The notes under the pieces: generated by a model
What the model was told of the DNA's origin: nothing
Databases searched by the model: none
What the model saw: only the letters and a program-made list of their open reading frames with translations
Translations under genes and position numbers: made by a program
Shown here: positions 1,439 through 52,955 of the stretch, in pieces
How the letters are laid out: the number at the start of each line of letters is the position of its first letter
Numbering within the stretch: position 1 is the stretch's first letter
Source of the DNA: a virus
Lineage: Duplodnaviria > Caudoviricetes
Strand: one strand, 5' to 3'
Length of the DNA: 54,684 nt
Virus record (IMG/VR): IMGVR_UViG_3300036791_000093
Span: 1-54,684 of that record

Positions 1439-1926
1439 ACGGCGATAAGCGCAAAGCCTTGAAACGTCACACTTTTGAGTTCTACTCAGAACTCGAAAAG
1501 CGGTCGGAAGTGAATGAGTATGGAATACGTGTGTTCGTAGGTGAGTACACGAAGGTACTGACAGAGATGAAGGTATCGACAACTCACTGGTCTGCGATAC
1601 GCGAGATACTCATCACTTCCGGCTGCATCAGCATCGTACAGCGAGGTACGGCACACCAGCCGTCCATCGTTGTATTGATAACCGAGCCTACCGACGAAAA
1701 TTATTCGGCGGGAAGCTTGACAAGCGCGCCGCACCCTGCTATCCTAGTCGCATCGCTGGAGAAACGGGTAGCTGCCTTGGAAGCGTGGTTTATCACACTT
1801 GGCGGGGATAAAGTGAACTTCGCTGAAATCGTGAGAAACCACGAACGACGGATAACCAAGGTTGAAGTGGGTATGGAGAGAGCCAGCGAACCAAACCAAA
1901 CAACACCGAAAGGAAATAACCAATGA
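1435..1926 (+). CDS. Hypothetical protein, possible winged-helix plus coiled coil
   Basis: ATGA overlap; helix-helix-beta hairpin pattern followed by a heptad-like C-terminus. Confidence 0.7.
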   Translation: MNGDKRKALKRHTFEFYSELEKRSEVNEYGIRVFVGEYTKVLTEMKVSTTHWSAIREILITSGCISIVQRGTAHQPSIVVLITEPTDENYSAGSLTSAPHPAILVASLEKRVAALEAWFITLGGDKVNFAEIVRNHERRITKVEVGMERASEPNQTTPKGNNQ

Positions 1927-2309
1927 GTGCTACGGGACTTCCCGCAGCCCTGACTAACGACAAGATTCGCAATCTCTACGCGAATCGTCGCAAGAAGGGT
2001 CTGTATCTCGATCTGCTTCACAACTTCCTCGCGATGAACATCGCGGGTGTCGGTGCTCGTGAGACTTGGCCGACTGAGTTCCCGGTGGTCACCATCGATG
2101 AGGATGGTGAGAAGTCTGGCAAGCAGGTCACTTCCATCAAGCAGGGATTCGATAACGCGAAGGAGAAGAAGGACGCTCCTGAGGGTGCTGACAAGGTGGA
2201 CGTGATCGTCGATGGTGATGAGGTCTACCTCATCAACCGCGGAATCTACAACCCGGATGAGGTCGAGGCCGAGGTCGAGGTTCCCGATGTCGAGGCTGCC
2301 ACGGTCTAG
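1923..2309 (+). CDS. Hypothetical protein, paralog of 48555..48941
   Basis: AAAGGA RBS; shared motifs NDKI..LY..RR.KG.Y, RE.WP..F, QGF.NA, DVI..DG.EVY and an acidic tail. Confidence 0.85.
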   Translation: MSATGLPAALTNDKIRNLYANRRKKGLYLDLLHNFLAMNIAGVGARETWPTEFPVVTIDEDGEKSGKQVTSIKQGFDNAKEKKDAPEGADKVDVIVDGDEVYLINRGIYNPDEVEAEVEVPDVEAATV

Positions 2310-2315
2310 TAACAA

Positions 2316-2398
2316 ATCAAGCCTAGCCTTCATGGCTAGGCTTGATAGACTAGCTCTCAAGCGAATGCGGTCGCAGGGAGCTAGTCTATCAAGTCTAG
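2316..2398 (+). promoter_or_regulatory. Two overlapping, mutually exclusive intergenic hairpins
   Basis: ATCAAGCCTAGCC/GGCTAGGCTTGAT (2316-2346) overlaps CTTGATAGACTAGCTC/GAGCTAGTCTATCAAG (2341-2393). Confidence 0.75.
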
Positions 2399-2411
2399 TG
2401 GAGGTAATCAC

Positions 2412-2576
2412 ATGACACTCGAAGAGTTCATCAATCGTGAAATCAACGTGTGGTCGGAAGATTACATCTTCGATCTGCTCGATCGGGGTTACGAGCCTGT
2501 CGAGCTTATCTCGGACACGGGACAAACCAAGTGGTCATGGGTAAAGCCGGTTACGGTGGAAATCCCAGTAAACTAG
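2412..2576 (+). CDS. Small hypothetical protein (54 aa, not in ORF track)
   Basis: GGAGGT RBS; MTLEEFINREINVWSEDYIFDLLDRGYEP... Confidence 0.75.
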   Translation: MTLEEFINREINVWSEDYIFDLLDRGYEPVELISDTGQTKWSWVKPVTVEIPVN

Positions 2577-2578
2577 GT

Positions 2579-2607
2579 TTGACAAAGGCTGGGATTTGTG
2601 CTACCGT
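2579..2607 (+). promoter_or_regulatory. Sigma70/SigA-type promoter
   Basis: TTGACA-17 nt-TACCGT with extended -10 TG; spacer ends GATTTGTGC as at 5748 and 53484. Confidence 0.85.
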
Positions 2608-2612
2608 TAGGG

Positions 2613-2703
2613 AGGCGGCGGGTAACCGTTTCTCCCGTTTCGGTTACCACGCCTGTTGCGGCAAACGGGGTTGAGCAGCTTGTCGAGTGCTCCCCCGTTT
2701 GCC
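2613..2703 (+). ncRNA. Candidate sRNA or structured leader with anti-RBS loop
   Basis: Stem GGTAACCG/CGGTTACC with loop TTTCTCCCGTTT; second stem GGCAAACGGGG..GAGCA/TGCTC.CCCCGTTTGCC; starts right after the promoter. Confidence 0.6.
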
Positions 2704-3114
2704 AGCTTTCCTGAGATTGAAGTATGCCCCTCGTGTGGCGAATTTGTCGATAGTCTCGAAGATGTTACTGGTTGGTGTAGGTCGTGTTCAGGTACAGTAA
2801 TCCACGAACACACTAGTAACAAGTTTGAGATGGCATTAGCGGCAAATGCAGACGCGATTGAATACTACACCAGGATAACAACAGTCAGTGGTGGTAGTAT
2901 AACAGTACGTCAAGCGTTGAAACTAGCGCGACAAGACAGAGCAATCTGTGTAGTGTGTGGTAAACCTATGCCACGTGCCCCACGGAATGCTGTGTTCTGT
3001 CGCAGGTTTCAATTGTGTCGTCGTTATTCAAGACGATACGTTTACCTGTATACAGAGCGAAAACCACCGATGACCAAAGCTGTAGCATTAGCCACAGTCC
3101 TCGGTGAGTTATAA
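2680..3114 (+). CDS. Multi-Zn-finger protein (start uncertain: 2656, 2671 or 2680)
   Basis: CPSC, CRSC, CVVC and CRRFQLC motifs; AAACGGGG upstream of TTG 2680. Confidence 0.7.
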   Translation: MSSAPPFASFPEIEVCPSCGEFVDSLEDVTGWCRSCSGTVIHEHTSNKFEMALAANADAIEYYTRITTVSGGSITVRQALKLARQDRAICVVCGKPMPRAPRNAVFCRRFQLCRRYSRRYVYLYTERKPPMTKAVALATVLGEL

Positions 3115-38897: not shown

Positions 38898-39923
38898 TTA
38901 GAATGCCGTCGGGCTAAACGCCGTCTTAATCAGGTAACCAGCAGACGAAGCCACGACCTTCAGGTCATACTTGAAGTTGGAGCGAACGAGATCAGCCTTG
39001 CGAGGCTCTTCACGCCACCGCTCAGTCGGGCGAGTCGTGCCATCCGGGTAAACCTCGGCAAACGTCTTGCCGAAGGTCATCGTGTTCTGACCCGGAACCG
39101 GATCGACGATGCCGATCCAAACGTCCTTGCCCCAGAAGGAAGTCATCGCGACTGTGGAATCACGGTTGTTCGCTGCGTTGTAGACGGAATCGAGAAGAAG
39201 GATTTGACCCTGGAAACCAGTGAGGATCTGGAATGCGCCAGGAATGCTGAGGTTGAAGTTCTTGAAACGATCGACCACGCGGGGATGATTCTCGATGTAT
39301 GAGATTCCGAGAGTTGGGATAGCAAGCGTGTTAGGCCAACGCAGCGTGACTGCGTAAATAGCACGCATGGCCTTCAAGATGTCGTTGACTGGATCAGATG
39401 TGATTGTCGAGACGATGCCGGGTGTACCATACGTGATGTTGTCCCACTGTGATGCACCTGAAAGTGTGACTGTGTTTCCAGCTGGGTAGTTTGCGACGTT
39501 CCTGATGAGTCCAGAAACCTTGAACTCGTGATTGATGAAGATGCTGCGAATTGCCTTGGCAACAGCATCCTGCTCAGGATCGAGTTGCAGAGCACCACCG
39601 AACACTGGATCAGCAAGACCACCTTGCGAGTACAACTGCTGACGCTCTTCATCGAAGATCGGGACTTGCAACGAATGCTCGTGAGTCTGGAAGTTGTCCG
39701 TAGACCACTTAGCACCAGTAACCTCATGAGCCACCGCTCCCGGCTCGCGACGATCTTCCGAGAGAGTCCAGTCGCTGCGGTCGAACACACGGTACAGACC
39801 CGACTGAGTTCTGACTGGTGTTTCCGGCATGATCTGAATCCCGTAGTAGGTTTGGACTTTTGGGAGACTGACCGAAAGATTCGTCAGAACCGGATCGATA
39901 TAAAGTAGGGAAGGATCGTACAT
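38898..39923 (-). CDS. Major capsid protein
   Basis: IDPVLTNLSV, R.PGA.A, DPVNDI, PNTLAI, TFGKTF, AGYLI; size and position. Confidence 0.88.
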   Translation of the reverse strand: MYDPSLLYIDPVLTNLSVSLPKVQTYYGIQIMPETPVRTQSGLYRVFDRSDWTLSEDRREPGAVAHEVTGAKWSTDNFQTHEHSLQVPIFDEERQQLYSQGGLADPVFGGALQLDPEQDAVAKAIRSIFINHEFKVSGLIRNVANYPAGNTVTLSGASQWDNITYGTPGIVSTITSDPVNDILKAMRAIYAVTLRWPNTLAIPTLGISYIENHPRVVDRFKNFNLSIPGAFQILTGFQGQILLLDSVYNAANNRDSTVAMTSFWGKDVWIGIVDPVPGQNTMTFGKTFAEVYPDGTTRPTERWREEPRKADLVRSNFKYDLKVVASSAGYLIKTAFSPTAF

Positions 39924-40344: not shown

Positions 40345-42042
40345 TTAAGCGGGAGCAGGAACGCGGTATGCGGCCGCGATGTCGGGATAAAGCTCGGCTG
40401 TCTTGGCAATAGCATCTTGGTAACTCATGTCAGGATTGTCACGCTGCGTCTCTGCGATTTTCTCGGCAAACAACTTGCGAACGCTAGAAATGCCAGCAGC
40501 GTTACTAACGTCCAGGTCTTGCATCTCACGCACGCGAGAACTTCCGTTCTCACCATATGCGACTGTTCCGCCCTGTGTGATGGTCTTGACCACTTCCTCG
40601 AAGTCCGCGAGAGTAGCAATACCTTCCGCGAACTTGATGTGAACCTCTGTGATCTTGTCCATCGCGAGAGCACTCAGTCCCACACCCGTAGGCACGAACT
40701 TGTCACCTTCCGGCTTGGTGAAGTGTGAGACAGACTCGGAGAACGCGCGAGCACGACCGTTACGGTCACGCTGCATCAGCTCTTGATGTTCCCTCCAATA
40801 GCTAGGAAACTTCTCCGCAAACTGCTTCTCTTCCGCAGAAGCGTTGACAGCCCTGCGAAGCTCTGTCATCTCACTGAACAGCGTTGTGACAGTCTCCTTC
40901 ACCTTGTCAGGCGGGACACTGAGCAGCTCAGCAAGCTCATCATCCAGAGTTGTCTGATCGCCGTTCTCGGTTGCATCAGGTGGCACTTGTGAATCACCTC
41001 CTTGACTATTAGTATCCGGGCCAGTAGTCGGAATCTTCACTGATGGATTCGGTAGAGGATCACGACGCCAGCCTTGCTGAATCGCTGGATCATCTGAGCC
41101 ATCCTCGAAAGTACGCGGAGCAGGAGGACTACCAGTTCCAGGTTCAGCATGTTCCTTCTCTTTGGTTTCACCGGTGATCTCATATCCACGTTCGGTCAGA
41201 AGATCGAATGCGATTTGGACTGATTCATCTTCACTCATGCTCTGCGACTTCGCTCCGAGAAGTTTGCGTGCTCTGGCTTGAAGACTGGCTTTGAGTGAGT
41301 CACTGACTCCCGACATCTGAGGGATACGTGCTATGGCATTCCTGAGATGAGGAAGATCAATCTTGCCGGAAGAATCCTTGTACGGAAGATGGCGAAGAGT
41401 ACGTGGTGTGGTTTTACCGCTACTGTCCTTACTTCCGCCGGACTCGACATATAGAAACGCGGAGTCAGGCAGACCATTGACGAATGCGGTACTCCACACA
41501 GCAAACTCGCGTTTGGTATCGTCGTCAAGCTCTTGCCATAACGCTTCCGAGAAATTGATCGGCATGGTACGCTTAGCGACTGGCCGGTTCGTAAGGCCAC
41601 CACCCAGAATGACATCGGGAACCATCTCACCCGAGTCCGTGACGTATTCATCATCCCATTCCAGTGACCAGTACTTCCACTTTCCTTCCTGGATTTCTTT
41701 CTTCGCTTCGTCTGTGAATGCTACATTTGCGAAGAGAGACTGTTGCTCAGGATCATCACTAGACGGACGAATCTCGAATCCTCTGTACCAGCCGCTAGCA
41801 CCCAATCCCTTGGCAGGATCACGTCCATGCTCAAAGTCTGTTGCGATGTCTTGTCCTCGAACTCTGTTTGTGAAGTTTGCGATGAACCGTTCGAGTTTAT
41901 CGACGGTAACCGGAATCTCCCCATACTGCGGTGTGGTGTAAACACGCGCAGGTAGGGCTTCGATCCAGACTTCACCAGCGTCACCAGTATCAGAACTGGA
42001 AACCAACTCTGGTGAGACTTCTGCTACTGCTGTTTCGAGCAT
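40345..42042 (-). CDS. Mu-like prohead protease/scaffold with inserted small domain
   Basis: DFEH, ASGW, FTDEAK..I..G.WKYWS.E, GGGLTNRP; insert NGLPDSAF...RHLPY...HLRNAIAR; helical scaffold C-terminus. Confidence 0.85.
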   Translation of the reverse strand: MLETAVAEVSPELVSSSDTGDAGEVWIEALPARVYTTPQYGEIPVTVDKLERFIANFTNRVRGQDIATDFEHGRDPAKGLGASGWYRGFEIRPSSDDPEQQSLFANVAFTDEAKKEIQEGKWKYWSLEWDDEYVTDSGEMVPDVILGGGLTNRPVAKRTMPINFSEALWQELDDDTKREFAVWSTAFVNGLPDSAFLYVESGGSKDSSGKTTPRTLRHLPYKDSSGKIDLPHLRNAIARIPQMSGVSDSLKASLQARARKLLGAKSQSMSEDESVQIAFDLLTERGYEITGETKEKEHAEPGTGSPPAPRTFEDGSDDPAIQQGWRRDPLPNPSVKIPTTGPDTNSQGGDSQVPPDATENGDQTTLDDELAELLSVPPDKVKETVTTLFSEMTELRRAVNASAEEKQFAEKFPSYWREHQELMQRDRNGRARAFSESVSHFTKPEGDKFVPTGVGLSALAMDKITEVHIKFAEGIATLADFEEVVKTITQGGTVAYGENGSSRVREMQDLDVSNAAGISSVRKLFAEKIAETQRDNPDMSYQDAIAKTAELYPDIAAAYRVPAPA

Positions 42043-42064: not shown

Positions 42065-43663
42065 CTAGGCTGAGCTGGTTGGTTTTGGAACGTTCCCACT
42101 ACCAGCTCCCTTTGTGATTGCTACGTTACCTTTCTGGCTTTGTCCGTTACCAGGTGTGGTTGGTGGTGGTGGCGCAGTAGTGCTAACCGTAGCGGGCGGT
42201 GGGGCACCTGCGCCGCCACCTGTGTAAGTACCCTGTAGCAAGATTTGCTCACGTGTCGGGTATTGGTAGGGTTCAGCGTTGGGATTCTTGTCGGGCATGT
42301 CGAACACGCTACGAATCCAGTTCTCAGTCTCAAGATCCATCGAGATGGCATCTTGAGCAACTAGACTCGAAAGTGCCGAACCAATCATCTGAAGGTCTTT
42401 GGTTTCACCGATGTTCCTGACTTTCAAAATGGGGAAATTTGTCGTCGGATAGTTCCAAACAACCAGTTCTGGAATCAGATACATGTTCACCACGTCTGCG
42501 ATGTAATTCGCGATGTACCTGAGAGCCTTCATAAAGATGTCCGCTTGGACACCACCTGTGGCTCGACTACCGGACGATCCTTGCAAACCTAGAGCCATGA
42601 ACTCAGCCATGACATTCAGGAGAATCATGGTGTTGTGGTGTGCGGCACTTTCGAGCGCATTCACCAGATTACCATGAATCTCCGCAAAATCGACTGTGAT
42701 ATTCGGTGTGGTAATGAAGAATGATTCTTCGTTGGTTCTCAAGTTACGCAGCATAGTCCTCAGTGATTCTTTATCTTCTGCTGTAGCTGCTGGGCCAAGT
42801 GCTCCATGTGGAATACCTAGACTGTGCCGTTCTTTTTGGATAGCATCGATCTTGTAGAAGTGTGTTTTGTAGTACCAGTGTGCATATGCTGTCCTAAGCA
42901 GCGAACGACCCGTAAGATCGCCTCCACGCCGGCTAAACGTGAAAATCATGATCTTAGCGATATCCAACTGGACTTGTTCCACTGACAAATCAGCTCTGAT
43001 GGCTTGTTGGGTTATATTCTGTGGGCCACCGTTGTCATCGTATGTAATTAGGCTGAGTGTGCTTGGAGGCCGTACACCAAGCTTCTTAAGCATGGTGTAC
43101 TGCTTCGTATTACGTGCCTTACCTTTCGGCGTCCATTCCCGAAGTTCGTAAACTTTCTCCAACACGCTATAACCATCTTCAAAGAAGTGCAACACGTCCT
43201 CAAGACTGTTAAGAAAAGGTGCCGCCATGCCTTCAAACAGGTTTGCGCAGATGAAATCGCTCACTTCTTGGTTGATTGGTTGGTCATCATAAGGCTCTAC
43301 ATAGAAGTCTGCACCCAAGATTGGAGTCTTTTGCACACGCATCGATACATCAACCGCTGCATCGTTCATCATCTTTGCGTATGTTAGTGTGCGCTGGTAT
43401 GGTGAAACTAGGTCTGGTACCAGCTCGATGATTCTAATCGGCTGTGACGAACCCGTTTCTTGGTTGAGCGACGGCTGTGCAATACTTGGATCGTTAACTT
43501 GACCCGATGTGTAGCTTGTCCCTGTTTGCGCTTTCCGTGGTGGAGTCGCGCCCCCCTTTTCCAACCCCTGCACAGGTGCCGGGGGCGCGTCGGTAGGCGT
43601 AGTAGTGTTAGACGCGATGGGCGCGGTACCTGGCTTAGACCGTCTGCGTGGCAAGAGTGGCAT
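42065..43663 (-). CDS. Portal protein (DUF935/Mu gp29-like)
   Basis: GYSVLEKVY, GRSLLR.AY..WYYK, ERHSLGIP, GSRATG, LIPELVVWNY. Confidence 0.9.
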   Translation of the reverse strand: MPLLPRRRSKPGTAPIASNTTTPTDAPPAPVQGLEKGGATPPRKAQTGTSYTSGQVNDPSIAQPSLNQETGSSQPIRIIELVPDLVSPYQRTLTYAKMMNDAAVDVSMRVQKTPILGADFYVEPYDDQPINQEVSDFICANLFEGMAAPFLNSLEDVLHFFEDGYSVLEKVYELREWTPKGKARNTKQYTMLKKLGVRPPSTLSLITYDDNGGPQNITQQAIRADLSVEQVQLDIAKIMIFTFSRRGGDLTGRSLLRTAYAHWYYKTHFYKIDAIQKERHSLGIPHGALGPAATAEDKESLRTMLRNLRTNEESFFITTPNITVDFAEIHGNLVNALESAAHHNTMILLNVMAEFMALGLQGSSGSRATGGVQADIFMKALRYIANYIADVVNMYLIPELVVWNYPTTNFPILKVRNIGETKDLQMIGSALSSLVAQDAISMDLETENWIRSVFDMPDKNPNAEPYQYPTREQILLQGTYTGGGAGAPPPATVSTTAPPPPTTPGNGQSQKGNVAITKGAGSGNVPKPTSSA

Positions 43664-45129
43664 TAGAGCCTTATCAACTCATCGAGTGTTATGTTGTTGT
43701 GCAACGTGAAGAAATCCTCACTCTCACTACCCTTGTAATTGGCACCGTAAACATCGCTAAGGTGCATCCCTGCACCATTTACGAAGTACGGGCCAATGAA
43801 GTAGCGGAGCGCATCCACCGCATGATCGTCAACCTTATGTTGAATATTGCCGTCCGCAGTCAATTCTTGCAGGTCGGATCTACGCGCCACTCGTCCTTGT
43901 TCCTTAACATGAAGCTTTGGCATCTGCCTAATCAAATTAGTGCAACTAGGATTGACGAGCAGCTTGGCTGGCATCGACTTGAGCATACGCTTCATTTGCT
44001 CGATCGCCAGTTTCCATCGCACGTCCTCCTGCGCTACGTAACCGATCGTGAGTGCGAGAGTTGATGCCTCATCTGCACCACGCGGATCGCCCCACATGCC
44101 ATCAACATGATAGCCATCTGGATTTTCGCGATCACGCAGGTAGATGCCGTGTTCGTGTGTACTCAAGCCAGACTTATAGTATTCCCGCCACACGTAGACA
44201 AAGGGGTTGTTGACATCTGCGGGATCGGGTATGACTTGTACGTCAAGGCATACGAAAGGATTAACAAATCCGTAGTCAAATGCAAGGAAGTTTGGGTACT
44301 GCGGCTCGAAGGGATGATGGACAATGTGGACATTATCCTCCCACTCCTCGAAGATGGTGCCAGTCATCGTTGTGAACTTGGCACCATATTCCTGGTCGAA
44401 CCATCTCTTGCTCGCCACACGCTTTACACGTTGAATCTCAGGGTCGTTGTACCCGCCAGGAAAACGTACCGTATTCTCCCACGTGGGGAAGTTCCACGAC
44501 TGGTACAGTGTCTTACCGCCAGGAGTCAAATTGCTGAGATTAGCATCCTGGCCCAGCATGTACATGCCGTGATACCAGTTGTATCCCTGCGGCGTACTTG
44601 GGAAGTCACATGAGCCGCGCAGGTCGCTCAGCGCCGGCTCTACAAACTGTTCCCATGTAGCTCTGTTGTGCCTCGCCGCCTCGCTCATACATGCGTGACT
44701 GAGCGCTTCTCCAAGCAAGGCATCAGGCTTATCAGCAGACACCACTTCAATGTGGGCATTCCAGGGTGTGATGATGTACATGTCACCCTGGTGAGCTGAG
44801 TAGCCCTTCTTGCAATACTTGAGGATTCCAAGTTTCTGGAAGTCCTGCCAAACAACGCGGAACTCTTTCTCACCTAGCTTGTACGTTGGCCCGATGATCC
44901 AGTTCCACGTATCTGTCTTAAATGCTTTGAGTCCCATGCGATGGCCCGCCGGCAATGATTTGCCATATCGCCTACCGCAGCATGGGATGCTGAACCTAGC
45001 CTTAGAGAACAGGTATTCATTCTGACCTGGTGAGTGAGGCGCGAACCCGATCTTGGAGTAATACTGATCCGCTGGAATACCAGGTTCCAGATTCGGGTCT
45101 GGCCTCCCTACGTTAGTTGTTAAGGACAT
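43663..45129 (-). CDS. terL: Terminase large subunit
   Basis: CGRRYGKS, SEAA, STPQGYNW, QEYGAKF, AFDYGF, DDHAVDALRY. Confidence 0.95.
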   Translation of the reverse strand: MSLTTNVGRPDPNLEPGIPADQYYSKIGFAPHSPGQNEYLFSKARFSIPCCGRRYGKSLPAGHRMGLKAFKTDTWNWIIGPTYKLGEKEFRVVWQDFQKLGILKYCKKGYSAHQGDMYIITPWNAHIEVVSADKPDALLGEALSHACMSEAARHNRATWEQFVEPALSDLRGSCDFPSTPQGYNWYHGMYMLGQDANLSNLTPGGKTLYQSWNFPTWENTVRFPGGYNDPEIQRVKRVASKRWFDQEYGAKFTTMTGTIFEEWEDNVHIVHHPFEPQYPNFLAFDYGFVNPFVCLDVQVIPDPADVNNPFVYVWREYYKSGLSTHEHGIYLRDRENPDGYHVDGMWGDPRGADEASTLALTIGYVAQEDVRWKLAIEQMKRMLKSMPAKLLVNPSCTNLIRQMPKLHVKEQGRVARRSDLQELTADGNIQHKVDDHAVDALRYFIGPYFVNGAGMHLSDVYGANYKGSESEDFFTLHNNITLDELIRL

Positions 45130-45589
45130 AATCAGAGCGAGGAAAGTTCAGACGTGCATACTCCCCAAAGCATTCTATTGCTGCTCTGTCATATGCTCTA
45201 GCGGCATCTTCCTCATTGTCATAGCGACCAAGAAAAATCTTTTTGTAATCTTTCTTAATTTCCGCTTGCCATTTGTTCTTGGTTTTTTGCCAGCATACAC
45301 CCTTGAATCTCGATGTACGCCGGCCCGCTATCTTTCTTTTGTTGGCATTGTTAAGTGTTCTGGTTGCAGCTCTGACATTTTCATTCTGCATGTTGAGAGG
45401 ATCGAGGTCCTTGTGATCCCATTCTCCACCATTCGGAGCCCTGCCAAACAAGAACACATGCATCTCCATCACGCCATTGGTTGGATAGCCAGTGCGATTG
45501 AGATACCAGTTTGATCTCATAGCCAAATCGTACTTGTCATCGCTGACAAGCACAACTTTATCTGAATTATTAAGAGGTACTGTTTTCAT
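45113..45589 (-). CDS. HNH-AP2 homing endonuclease between terS and terL
   Basis: WDHKDLDPLNMQNENVR; TSRFKGV.W..NKWQAEI...LGRY..EEDAARAYDRAA...FGEYARLNFP. Confidence 0.9.
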   Translation of the reverse strand: MKTVPLNNSDKVVLVSDDKYDLAMRSNWYLNRTGYPTNGVMEMHVFLFGRAPNGGEWDHKDLDPLNMQNENVRAATRTLNNANKRKIAGRRTSRFKGVCWQKTKNKWQAEIKKDYKKIFLGRYDNEEDAARAYDRAAIECFGEYARLNFPRSDYVLNN

Positions 45590-46052
45590 TTTTAAATTGT
45601 TGGAGTTCCTCATGGGTGTAAGTATTACCGGACTGCTTATCGGGTGCAGGCTCGGGTGTGGTTTCAAACAAGCCATTAATCAGATCGCGGATGGGATCGC
45701 CCTCGAAACGTCCTTCCTCGAAGGCTTCCTTGAGTACTGTGGTTGAGGCTCGCAATCTGATCGATTCACTATCGCTGTTCTGAGCAAGCCACACAATCTG
45801 GAGTGCAGCTTCCTCAGCATGTGTACGGAACAAATCTCGTGCGGCTTTCTCCACGTCCTGCGGTCGCCGCTTTTCCTCAGCTTCCTTGGCTTGTGCCTCA
45901 GCGAACTCTTCCCTGAGAGCTGCGGCGTACTCCTTAAGTGCGCTTTGCGCCATTTCCTCGGTAAGGCTGTCATCTGGGCTAACGGGGGTTTGCGGCGTGG
46001 GTGGGGTTTCTGCATCTGGATCGGGTACGTGAGTATGTGGCTCGTCGGCCAT
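45570..46052 (-). CDS. terS: Putative terminase small subunit
   Basis: Helical protein upstream of terL; SESIRLRASTTVL; ATG at 46052. Confidence 0.6.
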   Translation of the reverse strand: MADEPHTHVPDPDAETPPTPQTPVSPDDSLTEEMAQSALKEYAAALREEFAEAQAKEAEEKRRPQDVEKAARDLFRTHAEEAALQIVWLAQNSDSESIRLRASTTVLKEAFEEGRFEGDPIRDLINGLFETTPEPAPDKQSGNTYTHEELQQFKNENSTS

Positions 46053-46068
46053 GCGTGGAAGTATAGCA
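46053..46068 (-). promoter_or_regulatory. Extended -10 promoter giving a leaderless terS mRNA
   Basis: Minus strand TGC-TATACT-7 nt-ATG with no SD sequence. Confidence 0.6.
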
Positions 46069-46116
46069 ACGTTACTCGGTGGCACGGCTGGACACAGGGA
46101 TATCGCAGGAATGAGG

Positions 46117-46134
46117 TCAGATTATATAATCTGA
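46117..46134. promoter_or_regulatory. Perfect 18-bp palindrome TCAGATTATATAATCTGA
   Basis: Read directly; upstream of the late operon. Confidence 0.7.
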
Positions 46135-46190
46135 TGTAGGCTCGTTTTGGTGATTCGGTACACCCAAGACGATAGCGCATCATGTATAAA

Positions 46191-46230
46191 AAAATGGCTG
46201 AAAACAATGCTTTTCGTTTTCAGCCATTTT
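46191..46230. repeat. 15-bp perfect inverted repeat
   Basis: AAAATGGCTGAAAAC-10 nt-GTTTTCAGCCATTTT. Confidence 0.85.
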
Positions 46231-46276
46231 ACATTGGTGAGTGACTCATTTCTGAGTCACTCACCATTCCAGTGTC

Positions 46277-47353
46277 CTAGTTCACATCGCCCACGTAGCC
46301 CACTACTGCGGCCATGCGCGCGACGTCCGGTGTTGCGAGTGCGGCTAGCCTTGCCTCGCTCACCTTGCTCACTGTGCTCACCTTGCTCACGTGAGTAGCC
46401 TCGCTCGTGTCCTCCACGGGCGCATCGTTGCGCGTCACGTAGTCACTCACGCGCCACAGTGTGCGCGTGTACTGCCTCGCTCCGTACCTCGTGCCAGCGC
46501 TCACGCGCGGCGTGTAGACCGTGAGGCTTGCCAGTGTCGGAGTCTTTCTCACGAGCGCGATTACACGCGCGTAGTCCTCGTGCGTAGCGTCCGGGTGAGT
46601 GCCAGTTCCCACTACGTTTAGCGGCGCGAGTAGGTCTACAGGGCCGTGTGCGTCGCGCACGCTGACCCGCTCGTTTAGACCCTTCACTCCACGGATTCCA
46701 GTAGCCCCGCGCGGTGAGACACGAGCCTCACGCGCGTTGACCATGCCGCGCCACGGCGCGGGATCGTAGCCCTCACGCGGTGAGTCTGACGTGAGTACCG
46801 CTCCCGATTCCATCGCGCGTGCCATAGCAGCGGCTACGCGCCTGCCTCGCGGCGTCAGTCCTTCCACGCGGTCTAGTTCCGCCACGCGCTCACGTGACGC
46901 TACATCACGCACGATTGCCACGAGATACCGCGCGTCACGGTTCAGTAGTGAGCGCGTCACGTTGTACGTGTGTGCCTCACGCGCGAGTGTGTCGGGACGA
47001 TTGAGTAGCGCGTCAGTAGCGGCGCTCACGTGCTCCCCCCAGTAGCCCTGTAGACCAGACTTGCGCGTGAGCATGCCGCACGTGTGATTCCAGCGTGCCG
47101 CGTGCCTTGCCTCACTCACGCGGCGCGCCTCACTCGCGAGTGTGTCTACGCTCACGTGTGCCGCGTAGCTCACGTCCGGCCGTGTGTCAGTGTGATTCGC
47201 CGCGAGGCATGCCGCGTGCGCCTCGTTGTACTCGCGCGCCATCCGTGCCGTGTACCGCTTGGCTAGTGCCAATCGTGCCGCATGATGCGCCATTGCGCGT
47301 TGCCGTAGCGCCGCTACGTTCCGCGCGATTTCCTCTCTCGTGTACGTGTTCAT
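46277..47353 (-). CDS. Orphan Ala/Arg-rich protein with no Phe, encoded in a TT-depleted strand
   Basis: 358-codon ORF, GAAAGGA RBS 7 nt before ATG, TGC-TACTCT upstream. Confidence 0.75.
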   Translation of the reverse strand: MNTYTREEIARNVAALRQRAMAHHAARLALAKRYTARMAREYNEAHAACLAANHTDTRPDVSYAAHVSVDTLASEARRVSEARHAARWNHTCGMLTRKSGLQGYWGEHVSAATDALLNRPDTLAREAHTYNVTRSLLNRDARYLVAIVRDVASRERVAELDRVEGLTPRGRRVAAAMARAMESGAVLTSDSPREGYDPAPWRGMVNAREARVSPRGATGIRGVKGLNERVSVRDAHGPVDLLAPLNVVGTGTHPDATHEDYARVIALVRKTPTLASLTVYTPRVSAGTRYGARQYTRTLWRVSDYVTRNDAPVEDTSEATHVSKVSTVSKVSEARLAALATPDVARMAAVVGYVGDVN

Positions 47354-47458
47354 GGGTGAGTCCTTTCGGGTGAGTGTGACGCGCGCCTCATGCGCGCACC
47401 CCCAGAGTAGCAGCGGCGCGCGGTTGCACGTGTCCCTACCCCTAGAGTACGCATAGCT

Positions 47459-47704
47459 TGGCTGAAATGTTAGGACTGTCCTTACATCTCAGCTTGGCTG
47501 GCTGGCACCGTGTCTCTCGTGAGGCACGGTGCCTCACACGGCACACGGCACACGTGAGGCACACGACACGTTTAGGTGTCGTGTCACACTTGTGTGTCAC
47601 GACTCAGATATGGGTCGTGTCACTTTTCTGTGACATGACCCAGATATGGGTCGTGTGACTTATCTGTCACCACACACTTTCCTTACATTTCAGGAAAGTG
47701 GTGG
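47459..47704. repeat. Cluster of short palindromes and direct repeats
   Basis: GGCACCGTGTCTC/GAGGCACGGTGCC; ACACGACAC/GTGTCGTGT; CAGATATGGGTCGTGT twice; CACTTTCC/GGAAAGTG. Confidence 0.8.
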
Positions 47705-47722
47705 CTACAGTGTGAGAGATGG

Positions 47723-47778
47723 CGCAAGTCAGCAAGTCAGCAAATTCGCAAGTCAGCAAGTGTACAAATTCGCAATTT
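47723..47778 (+). repeat. Seven tandem degenerate 8-mers (consensus (A/C)GCAA(G/A)T(C/T))
   Basis: cgcaagtc agcaagtc agcaaatt cgcaagtc agcaagtg tacaaatt cgcaattt. Confidence 0.85.
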
Positions 47779-47837
47779 GCTAACTTTTCAGATCGCGCGC
47801 CTGCTTTAATAAAAACAGCACAGGACGGGGGAATCAA

Positions 47838-48122
47838 GTGAAAGGCGTGAGCAACCTAGAGTTGCTTGCCTCATTTGGTAACTCTCGCAAGTCAAGTGGA
47901 AACGGACTGTTCCGAATCACTGAGGAAGATGGAACAGTCACCTTCCAACGTGGCGCCGCGAGTAGTTCGCAGATAGGCAAGTTTGAAGGAAAGTCGGGTG
48001 GCATGGTTCGCTCGGCTAAGGGTGCTACCCGTCGTAAGTTGGACGGCCGGCGTTACTACGTTCCCGGTGCAGACTCACCCTACCCGCTAGTCGCGTACAA
48101 AGCGGCTACGGTGGTTAAGTAG
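47838..48122 (+). CDS. Basic hypothetical early protein
   Basis: ACGGGGGA RBS; first ORF of the rightward arm. Confidence 0.6.
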   Translation: MKGVSNLELLASFGNSRKSSGNGLFRITEEDGTVTFQRGAASSSQIGKFEGKSGGMVRSAKGATRRKLDGRRYYVPGADSPYPLVAYKAATVVK

Positions 48123-52265: not shown

Positions 52266-52955
52266 ATGGCTAGTGAACCGCAAGTGAACTACATGCTTAA
52301 CCTAGCCGGCAAGAAGGACTTGACGAAGGTGTCTCCTGTAACCATTGCAAGGCTGAATTCTCTACAGGCTCTCGAATCTCTGAATAACACAGAGGTTAAC
52401 GTGATCCTTGATGAGTTGAAAGCTCAGCCCTGGTTGCCCAAAAAGCCCGCACAGGGTTCGACATCAACGGCAAGTCCTACTCAAACGGCTCCTGCAACTC
52501 AGCCGGTTCAAGAGGATGAGCATGTTCCACTCAACATGAGTGGAAGGTACTTCATCACTGATCCGACTGATGGAGTGGAGAAGTTTGTGATCGTGTCGGT
52601 TAGCGTCCAAGCAAGTGACTTCCTGTATCCGGTGAAAGAGCCGGTTCACAGGAACACGATACTGCAAACCATTGCAAAGAACCCGGTGACTTCCATGAAC
52701 GAGTATGGAATGAAGCTCGGTATCTGTGGTGTCTGTGGTCGCACGCTAACTCGGCGTGACTCAAGGCTCAGGGGTATGGGGCCAATCTGTGCAGCCAGGT
52801 TTGGTAGTGTGGCTACACCGGAGCAAGTTGACATGCTTAGGGAGCTTGGGCTTATCAAGCCTGAATCACACGACAGCCCGTTTTCAGAGCTTGGCCCTCA
52901 TGGTGAGGATCTAAGTTCTGACGAGTACGACGCAAGCGACCTCGAAACTGAGTAA
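52266..52955 (+). CDS. DUF6011-like Zn-finger domain protein
   Basis: YG...G.CGVCGRTLT..DS..RGMGPICA. Confidence 0.8.
   Translation: MASEPQVNYMLNLAGKKDLTKVSPVTIARLNSLQALESLNNTEVNVILDELKAQPWLPKKPAQGSTSTASPTQTAPATQPVQEDEHVPLNMSGRYFITDPTDGVEKFVIVSVSVQASDFLYPVKEPVHRNTILQTIAKNPVTSMNEYGMKLGICGVCGRTLTRRDSRLRGMGPICAARFGSVATPEQVDMLRELGLIKPESHDSPFSELGPHGEDLSSDEYDASDLETE

Follow-up and report, generated by a model that had tools for sequence, protein, structure and literature searches.

What keeps adjacent thymines almost entirely out of one strand of a single phage gene, and with them phenylalanine (Phe) out of its protein? The question is raised by a complete IMG/VR virus record (IMGVR_UViG_3300036791_000093; Duplodnaviria; Caudoviricetes), whose 54,684 base pairs (bp) were analysed in full and are called the window here. 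The gene in question, P0001 (46277..47353, - strand), ends in a TAG stop and encodes 358 amino acids (aa), none of which is Phe. A preliminary description of the locus had pointed out the missing Phe together with an avoidance of TT-containing codons and of T|T codon junctions, had proposed that a nucleotide constraint reshaped the protein, and had regarded the gene as an orphan at a putative genome end that would remain translatable if tRNA-Phe were cleaved. We find that the sense strand of this gene and of its phage homologues is held almost TT-free by ongoing selection at the level of the nucleic acid, in all three codon phases as well as in untranslated parts, and that the loss of Phe, and of much Ile, from the protein is a side effect of this ban.

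TT exclusion in P0001

The coding strand of P0001 contains one TT, compared to 20.1 expected from its base composition, and among 20,000 mononucleotide shuffles (mean 19.9, minimum 7) none had one or fewer. The avoidance noted in the preliminary description was thus borne out, also at the level of single codons: GTT is used for none of 38 Val, ATT for none of 4 Ile, and CTT and TTA for none of 26 Leu, of which one is encoded by TTG. In the remaining ORFs (open reading frames) of the window the corresponding T-ending codons make up 24–30% (GTT 312/1072 Val, CTT 291/1206 Leu, ATT 245/827 Ile). Codons ending in T still occur 42 times in P0001, and T|T junctions between codons are absent (3.3 expected from synonymous shuffles; P = 0.023 for this single gene). 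Compared with all 53 non-overlapping window ORFs of at least 100 aa, P0001 is the sole outlier both for TT (observed/expected 0.05; median 0.94, next-lowest 0.65) and for Phe (0%; median 3.2%, next-lowest 0.7%). As for other dinucleotides, CC and GG are also low and CG, GC and AC are high, the G/C content being 0.65 vs about 0.50 for the genome. The reading frame of P0001 has no internal stop (11–31 in each of the five other frames), and its product is net basic (K+R 51, D+E 38).

Read on the + strand, where the excluded dinucleotide is AA, the exclusion covers 46207-47271, 47272-47465 and 47467-47695, i.e. a zone of 1,489 nucleotides (nt) with two breaks that takes in both flanks of the gene. 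The next-longest run lacking any one dinucleotide in the 54.7-kb window is 282 nt.

A homologue family under the same rule

P0001 is no orphan, as had been assumed: an exhaustive HMMER search returned 42 homologue cluster representatives at E <= 1e-3, 16 of them at <= 1e-10. They share a core (WRG..ARE.RVS.RGA.G..G.RG..RVS.RD...P..L.PL.TVGVATHP.A..DY), corresponding to roughly residues 130-300 of P0001, and a conserved C-terminal tail. Phe accounts for 44 of their 12,161 residues (0.36%); 15 representatives contain none, 16 contain one, eight contain two and three contain four. P0003, a 136-aa fragment identical to the protein of the window, was excluded from these counts. One scan of metagenomes added four further loci with DNA (L002-L005), two of which are cut by contig ends (L002 lacks the 5' end and L005 the 3' end). 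The family-wide rule is based on five of six loci with DNA, the sixth being the chromosomal copy described below, and on the protein composition of the representatives.

The coding strands of the four metagenomic homologues contain 2, 1, 2 and 2 TT vs 14.0, 22.2, 21.4 and 27.6 expected, while TT in the flanks of these loci is at expectation (e.g. 35 of 37.5; 62 of 67.7). Their ORFs are 8–17 points richer in G/C than the flanks (0.64-0.70 vs 0.50-0.57), about 12 points on the whole. When the five genes were pooled (1,570 codons; L004 and L005 trimmed at an internal Met, although upstream GTG starts are suggested instead), GTT was found in 0/117, CTT in 0/121 and ATT in 1/26 cases, whereas the T-ending contrast codons GCT (69/305) and CGT (57/206) are in regular use. 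T|T junctions occur twice vs 17.0 expected. TNT is about normal, so that the avoidance is limited to adjacent TT, and Phe, encoded by TTC, is present in three of the five genes. The same exclusion is seen in the non-coding leaders and 3' untranslated regions (UTRs), which pooled over all loci (1,518 nt) contain 4 TT vs 49.0 expected, and 108 AA vs 95.8. Since the exclusion covers the untranslated leader and 3' UTR, the constraint is a strand-specific one on the nucleic acid of the transcription unit and not a translational one.

Codon alignments reveal third positions as the most divergent in 10 of 10 pairs, and nonsynonymous differences per site (pN) are below synonymous ones (pS) in 10 of 10 pairs, with synonymous divergence (dS) above 1.2. 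The homologue check proposed earlier thus returned both low Phe and purifying selection. P0001 is a genuine, fairly fast-evolving protein gene; its dN/dS of about 0.35-0.69 compares with 0.17-0.42 for the neighbour resembling a small terminase (TerS) and about 0.12 for the large terminase (TerL). As dS exceeds 1.2 and pN remains below pS, synonymous sites are saturated; nevertheless, TT has not been regained.

Each gene also has an over-represented coding-strand hexamer relative to synonymous shuffles: CGTGAG in the window (12 vs 3.6, in two codon phases), GGCTGC in L002 (14 vs 5.3), GCTGAC in L003 (12 vs 4.8), CTGAGC in L004 (10 vs 2.8) and CGTGGC in L005 (10 vs 4.3). These may reflect limits on what follows a T, or host-specific oriented motifs, for which Chi-like loading was considered. 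Protein-pattern scans of IMG/VR yielded no further relative; a motif scan and another pattern scan recovered the contig of L003 only, and the other 12 matches of the motif scan have no TT-free zone. A profile search of a 5.8-billion-protein set gave 3 proteins and was swamped by Ala/Arg-rich words.

A natural control is offered by one more homologue, found by scanning genome contigs (L006 7992-8510, = L007) in a metagenome-assembled genome titled uncultured Actinomycetota bacterium, with cellular neighbours (GST, RibD_C, AHSA1, FG-GAP, ROK). TT in this copy (13) is close to the 13.4 expected, and its 176 aa include 5 Phe, at positions where its relatives have L, Y, W, V and A. It is truncated: the C-terminal tail of the family is missing, QL replaces the near-invariant HP, and the profile match crosses two stop codons. 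A match was found in just one of 201 related genomes. The copy would be a phage remnant in decay, or else belong to a branch that was never under the constraint, and it suggests that the fold tolerates Phe and that the TT ban is absent outside the phage setting. The earlier proposal that a nucleotide constraint reshaped the protein therefore gains support from several sides: synonymous sites, codon junctions and the untranslated flanks all avoid TT, Phe is rare throughout the family, and the unconstrained copy has Phe. Because the constraint is kept in soil phages and absent outside phage, some reader of TT or UU on that strand would have to act during infection.

Limits of the TT-free zone

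Downstream of P0001 the zone comprises a 3' UTR (46231..46276, - strand) with a GC-rich hairpin (46235-46266, perfect 14-bp arms) and an AATGTAA motif. It is followed by a predicted intrinsic terminator (46184..46230, - strand), which consists of a hairpin with perfect 15-bp arms (46191-46230) and a T-run on the - strand; the TT-free run stops within the loop and 3' arm of this terminator. In all four loci that have the 3' side, the first TT past the stop codon falls in such a hairpin and T-run terminator, and in three of these four a separate GC-rich hairpin lies 5' of it. On the other side of the gene, the TT-free 5' leader (47354..47465, - strand; TT 0, AA 4) contains TACTCTRGGGG -10-like boxes at 47399-47409 and 47439-47449. 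The ribosome binding site GAAAGGA, 7 nt 5' of the ATG, and the -10-like TGcTACTCT, read at 47415-47400, were located as previously described; the second box, at 47439-47449, reads TACTCTAGGGG. The long TT-free run of L003 and L004 begins inside an identical 19-nt -10-like box, GATTATGAGGCGAAAACCC, ~100 nt before the start codon, and that of L005 begins at GATATT. To us, the limits of the zone look like the limits of a putative transcript.

Further upstream, the window has another TT-free, hairpin-rich segment (47466..47695, - strand) with a minimum free energy of -103 kcal/mol over 230 nt. Two palindromes, GACCCATATCTG(G/A)GTC, lie in it together with copies of an A(A/G)ATGTAAGGA motif. From leader, ORF, GC-rich hairpin and hairpin plus T-run terminator, as predicted, the gene forms a unit of its own directly upstream of the packaging module.

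A message without UU?

We lean, tentatively and with somewhat less than an even chance in mind, towards the explanation that the TT-free strand reflects an mRNA free of UU that would be immune to an RNA-directed activity needing UU. Selection would then act on the transcript; with its UUs gone, it would be hard to attack for any activity that requires two neighbouring uridines in a single-stranded stretch of RNA. The agent might be a host endoribonuclease of decay or defence, or a shut-off activity of the phage itself; high G/C content and the 5' and 3' hairpins would add protection, and the protein would still be made while other messages are destroyed. We favour the RNA level because the limits match terminator- and promoter-like signals, the affected strand is the sense strand, and G/C content, hairpins and loss of UU all hinder cutting. 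As background, and not as evidence from this locus, RNase E acts on A/U-rich RNA that is single-stranded, a U at +2 being one determinant (PMC8682795), the mycobacterial enzyme is described as preferring RN|CNU (PMC10641625), and in a cyanobacterium infected by phage chosen mRNAs are protected from RNase E (PMC3113571). The preliminary idea of an mRNA that survives an RNase comes close to this reading and survives as something we infer. A more specific version, in which a UU-cutting or UU-modifying activity is released in infection, by host defence or as phage shut-off, and the gene encodes the antidote or the enzyme itself, seems to us possible but doubtful.

Several observations weigh against a UU-free message. 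We know of no bacterial enzyme with exactly a UU requirement. The RNase E rule (PMC8682795) is one U at +2 and not UU, and UU itself is a requirement of none of the enzymes cited. Single Us persist in the unit (12-18% U), and neither AU nor UA shows a consistent depletion. An agent of the phage itself would also strike the other phage messages, which have normal TT. The extra 190-260 nt upstream of the -10-like boxes that are TT-free in the window, L003 and L004 demand a further, putative promoter, and a zone defined on DNA would be simpler there. Promoters and transcript ends are derived from sequence alone; a scan with the sigma-70 consensus found no promoter in 45900-48100, and those given here were read by eye. 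The folding z-scores of the unit (-0.7, -2.1, -1.5) are no different from those of the terminase and portal genes. TT exclusion is absent in one of the six loci with DNA, and three family representatives have four Phe each. Finally, the orientation of the gene relative to the packaging genes is identical in all five loci, and because every locus has the same layout, the sense strand of an RNA and a fixed strand of DNA are inseparable.

One alternative is that the constraint acts on a strand of DNA, i.e. that a zone of ~1.35-1.55 kb is exposed as single-stranded DNA or tracked on one strand, that TT is harmful there, and that the gene is incidental. End resection might leave the zone as a 3' tail, it might be what passes the terminase last before cos is cleaved, or the phage primase might have to be kept from priming on this strand. 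Its size is alike in three loci (window 1,489 nt; L003 528-1878; L004 about 1490-3037), its position is fixed between iterons or AT-rich repeats on the one side and the TerS-like gene, TerL and portal on the other, it holds conserved palindromes (CCCCCATATGGGGG in L003 and L004; GACCCATATCTGGGTC twice in the window), and the phage encodes its own primase, exonuclease and Sak4-like annealing protein. On this reading the TTs remaining inside the zone would lie only in the -10-like boxes and a few codons, and the TT-free sequence upstream of the promoter-like boxes is better explained than by an RNA. However, a pure DNA zone does not predict that the 3' limit is a transcription terminator in 4 of 4 loci, nor that the long run begins at a -10-like box in three; no genome end, cos site or origin has been mapped, and we can cite no packaging or priming process with a TT requirement. 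We consider a DNA-level zone unlikely, though it is the strongest rival of the RNA reading. Selection might also work through RNA polymerase, with UU purged so that it avoids pausing or early termination in a hairpin-rich, GC-rich transcript. Intrinsic termination requires rU:dA tracts, and T-rich signals on the non-template strand can promote pausing; the unit is indeed GC-rich with dense inverted repeats, and its T-runs occur exactly where termination is wanted. But termination takes runs of several U, so that a ban on every UU, even where no hairpin precedes it, is far too strict, and neighbouring genes with similar folding z-scores retain normal TT, which makes this proposal quite improbable.

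The remaining explanations do without selection on TT, or place it elsewhere. A strand-specific mutational process tied to transcription or replication might erode TT locally, in line with the local, strand-specific effect and with a gene that evolves faster than its neighbours (dN/dS 0.35-0.69 vs 0.17-0.42 for the TerS-like gene). Such a process would have to halt exactly at the terminator, spare the promoter box, strip conserved Phe without loss of function and leave TNT and AA untouched, and we know of no TT-lowering process with a TT-only signature; we regard it as very improbable. Independence from tRNA-Phe, by which the protein could be translated after e.g. an anticodon nuclease has cut this tRNA, was part of the preliminary description and would fit the lack of Phe in P0001 and its rarity in the family. 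The proposal fails to account for the exclusion being equal in the 1,518 nt of untranslated sequence, for the purging of the Val, Leu and Ile codons GTT, CTT and ATT and of codon junctions, and for TTC-encoded Phe in three of five genes, and it is hardly credible to us; the lack of tRNA genes in the window is neutral in this respect. That P0001 might be no gene at all, but a stop-poor open frame or an assembly artefact, could be argued from its high G/C content (0.65) and the lack of a family match. Against this stand the 11-31 stops of the other frames, the 42 homologue clusters, codon-phased divergence with pN < pS, and the same feature in contigs of four other metagenome records, and we give this possibility practically no credence.

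Three further candidates were rejected, and a fourth found no support. R-loop formation does not agree with the GC skew of the five genes (-0.03 to +0.075) and the depletion of GG. Protection from ultraviolet damage was dismissed by reasoning, as the TT-free strand is the non-template strand and TTs persist on the template (the coding strand has 37 AA). General avoidance of restriction sites does not fit the abundance of GC-rich palindromes (CGCGCG in 10 copies; CACGTG). In case of protospacer adjacent motifs, CC and GG are only at 0.3-0.7 of expected, and such motifs act on both strands.

Comparison with known systems

Some close parallels come from RNA. Depletion of UU and UA in RNA viruses serves as escape from RNase L, and mRNAs without ACA escape MazF. 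In both, the message has lost the short motif that a sequence-specific endoribonuclease recognizes and thereby escapes it, with the signal at synonymous sites, as we propose for our case; here, in contrast, the carrier is a double-stranded DNA phage, one transcription unit is affected, the ban is near-absolute and the composition of the protein is altered. We know of no nuclease of UU specificity for the host. On the side of DNA, phages avoid restriction sites, and T7 has its EcoP15I sites in one orientation, so that selection can strip a short word from phage DNA in a strand-specific way; there, however, words of 4-8 bp are avoided genome-wide, whereas here a dinucleotide is avoided over 1.5 kb only. 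Streptomyces genes are scarce in TTA codons, with control by bldA. The likeness is that most genes go almost without a TT-containing codon and their expression is independent of one tRNA, but that system concerns one codon in a high-GC genome and acts via translation, whereas here every TT is affected, in all phases and in untranslated parts, at ~50% G/C.

Phage morons and first-entering anti-restriction genes, e.g. T7 0.3 or those of the T5 pre-early region, offer another comparison. P0001 would resemble them as a putative self-contained unit between modules with its own predicted terminator (in 4 of 4 loci) and a G/C content about 12 points over that of its flanks, its promoter having been read by eye with none from the consensus scan. 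It differs in that its position is conserved across distant relatives and in that it has no sequence or fold similarity to such proteins. Long antisense RNAs of Prochlorococcus (PMC3113571) let particular messages survive while bulk RNA decays in the infected cell, but protection is achieved there by duplex formation, whereas here it would lie in the sequence of the message itself.

In the literature on Phe-free phage proteins and on phage dinucleotide depletion we found nothing comparable. Avoidance of short words in viral genomes is known; its local, strand-specific and near-absolute form that reshapes a whole protein family is, to our knowledge, new, and if the avoidance proves not to be escape from a nuclease it may deserve a category of its own. 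Naming the reader, be it a nuclease, a modifying enzyme, a property of the polymerase or a step of packaging or replication, would expose a new site of conflict between phage and host, or a new requirement in cis. Should the gene indeed carry an immune message, a strand-specific dinucleotide ban would be a sequence-only signature both for escape genes and for the specificity of the nuclease. Knowledge of the reader would likewise supply a simple rule by which genomes can be scanned for further cases.

Searches for protein function

The hidden Markov model and structure searches called for by the preliminary description returned the homologues but no family or fold match. P0001 itself had no match in Pfam (best E 0.13) or PHROG (best E 0.23). 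None of the 42 family members matched PHROG at 1e-3, and one match to LexA_DNA_bind (E 0.0066) is not convincing. Comparing the family profile with PDB sequences gave no match at E <= 1, and the ESM Atlas gave nothing usable. Two AlphaFold models (pLDDT, the predicted local distance difference test, 67 and 73.5) show confident long N-terminal helices and a C-terminal alpha-beta-beta-alpha unit. The most conserved block is Arg/Gly-rich, with pLDDT < 60 in both models, and is predicted to be without fixed structure. Foldseek found no match in PDB or BFVD at E <= 1e-3, a weak test given the low confidence of the models in the conserved block.

Three specific identities were rejected. P0001 would be a poor small terminase, as that position is taken by another ORF of 150-230 aa in 4 of 4 loci, and with its 358 aa it matched no profile; BFVD rows named small terminase (E 0.16, 0.46) are not evidence. 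HEPN-type RNases have a conserved R-x(4-6)-H motif. The spacing of R229 and H236 would fit, but the invariant residues of the 42-sequence alignment are R211 and D234, and H236 is not conserved. A structured non-coding RNA is not indicated by Rfam, whose only rows are two microRNA models (E 0.67, 0.96), nor by folding z-scores, which are no lower than in neighbouring genes, and the divergence is codon-phased.

Gene neighbourhood and phage lineage

The order around the gene is conserved: iterons or AT-rich repeats, the TT-free zone with the gene, terminator, a small block, an ORF of 150-230 aa, large terminase, portal, protease and major head protein. In the window the small block (46150..46178, - strand; CTAT.G...TGTACCGA), present in all four loci having the 3' side, is a candidate late-promoter or packaging signal. 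The ORF that follows (45570..46085, - strand) is the conserved downstream neighbour, 42-43% identical to the soil loci in alignment A5 and normal in Phe and Lys; it is a candidate small terminase by position, with no family match. An HNH endonuclease gene (45113..45676, - strand) lies between this TerS-like ORF and the large terminase (43663-45129) in the window; L003 and L002 lack it there. Next come the genes for portal (42065-43663), protease (40345-42042) and major head protein (38898-39923).

The genome, of about 50% G/C, is divided into a + strand with replication genes (helicase, exonuclease, Sak4-like annealing protein, primase, dNMP kinase and DNA polymerase) and a - strand with lysis, tail, head and packaging genes. 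The position at a putative genome end could not be upheld. The terminal repeat of the record is exactly 127 bp, which we take for an overlap left by assembling a circular or permuted contig, so that the contig ends would be uninformative on physical genome ends, and the gene sits 7 kb from the contig end. A search for ends, joints and variants in contigs from three soil runs found none, and no physical genome end could be mapped. The sequencing runs that contain the stretch are soil metagenomes only, with no RNA run among them. Among 50,697 cultured phage records no DNA relative of the TT-excluding gene was found, likewise by tblastn, and the best tblastn match of the major head protein was 25% identical. 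The lineage has no cultured relative and is known from soil metagenomes alone. In the early region a DUF6011 match (E 2e-11) was found in the protein encoded at 52266-52955 (+); most other early ORFs are without family.

Just beyond the TT-free zone, the divergent intergenic region contains 8-nt tandem iterons (GCAAGTCA-like, 5 registers; 47723..47778). L003, L004 and L005 have other iterons at the equivalent place, and the array at 47723-47778 is a candidate origin or operator.

A motif, A(A/G)ATGTAA(G/A)G, recurs on the sense strand at both sides of the TT-free gene. Its sites are 47465-47475 (+), 47479-47489 (-), 47680-47690 (-) and 46228-46234 (-) in the window, ~1019 in L002, ~470 in L003, and ~1311, 1713 and 3007 in L004; they are placed in the leader and, in three of four loci, just 5' of the terminator hairpin. 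The motif is not enriched genome-wide (11 matches with up to 2 mismatches vs 11.9 expected) and could be the binding site of a regulator. Distant relatives share palindromes of the form CCCATAT(C)TGGG: CCCCCATATGGGGG lies at ~625-645 in L003 and ~1605-1625 in L004, GACCCATATCTG(G/A)GTC at 47600-47616 and 47644-47660 in the window, and GACTCATATCTGAGTC at ~2975-3000 in the 3' UTR of L004. The non-coding block that holds them is conserved between L003 and L004 far above the gene itself; the palindromes might serve as an operator or a cos-like site, or form an RNA hairpin. Another, perfect palindrome, GATTATATAATC, at 46120-46131, lies after the terminator and before the TerS-like gene. With TATAAT on each strand, it is likely the promoter of the packaging operon; GATTATATAATC is similar to the GATTAT box found 5' of the TT-free gene in L003 and L004.

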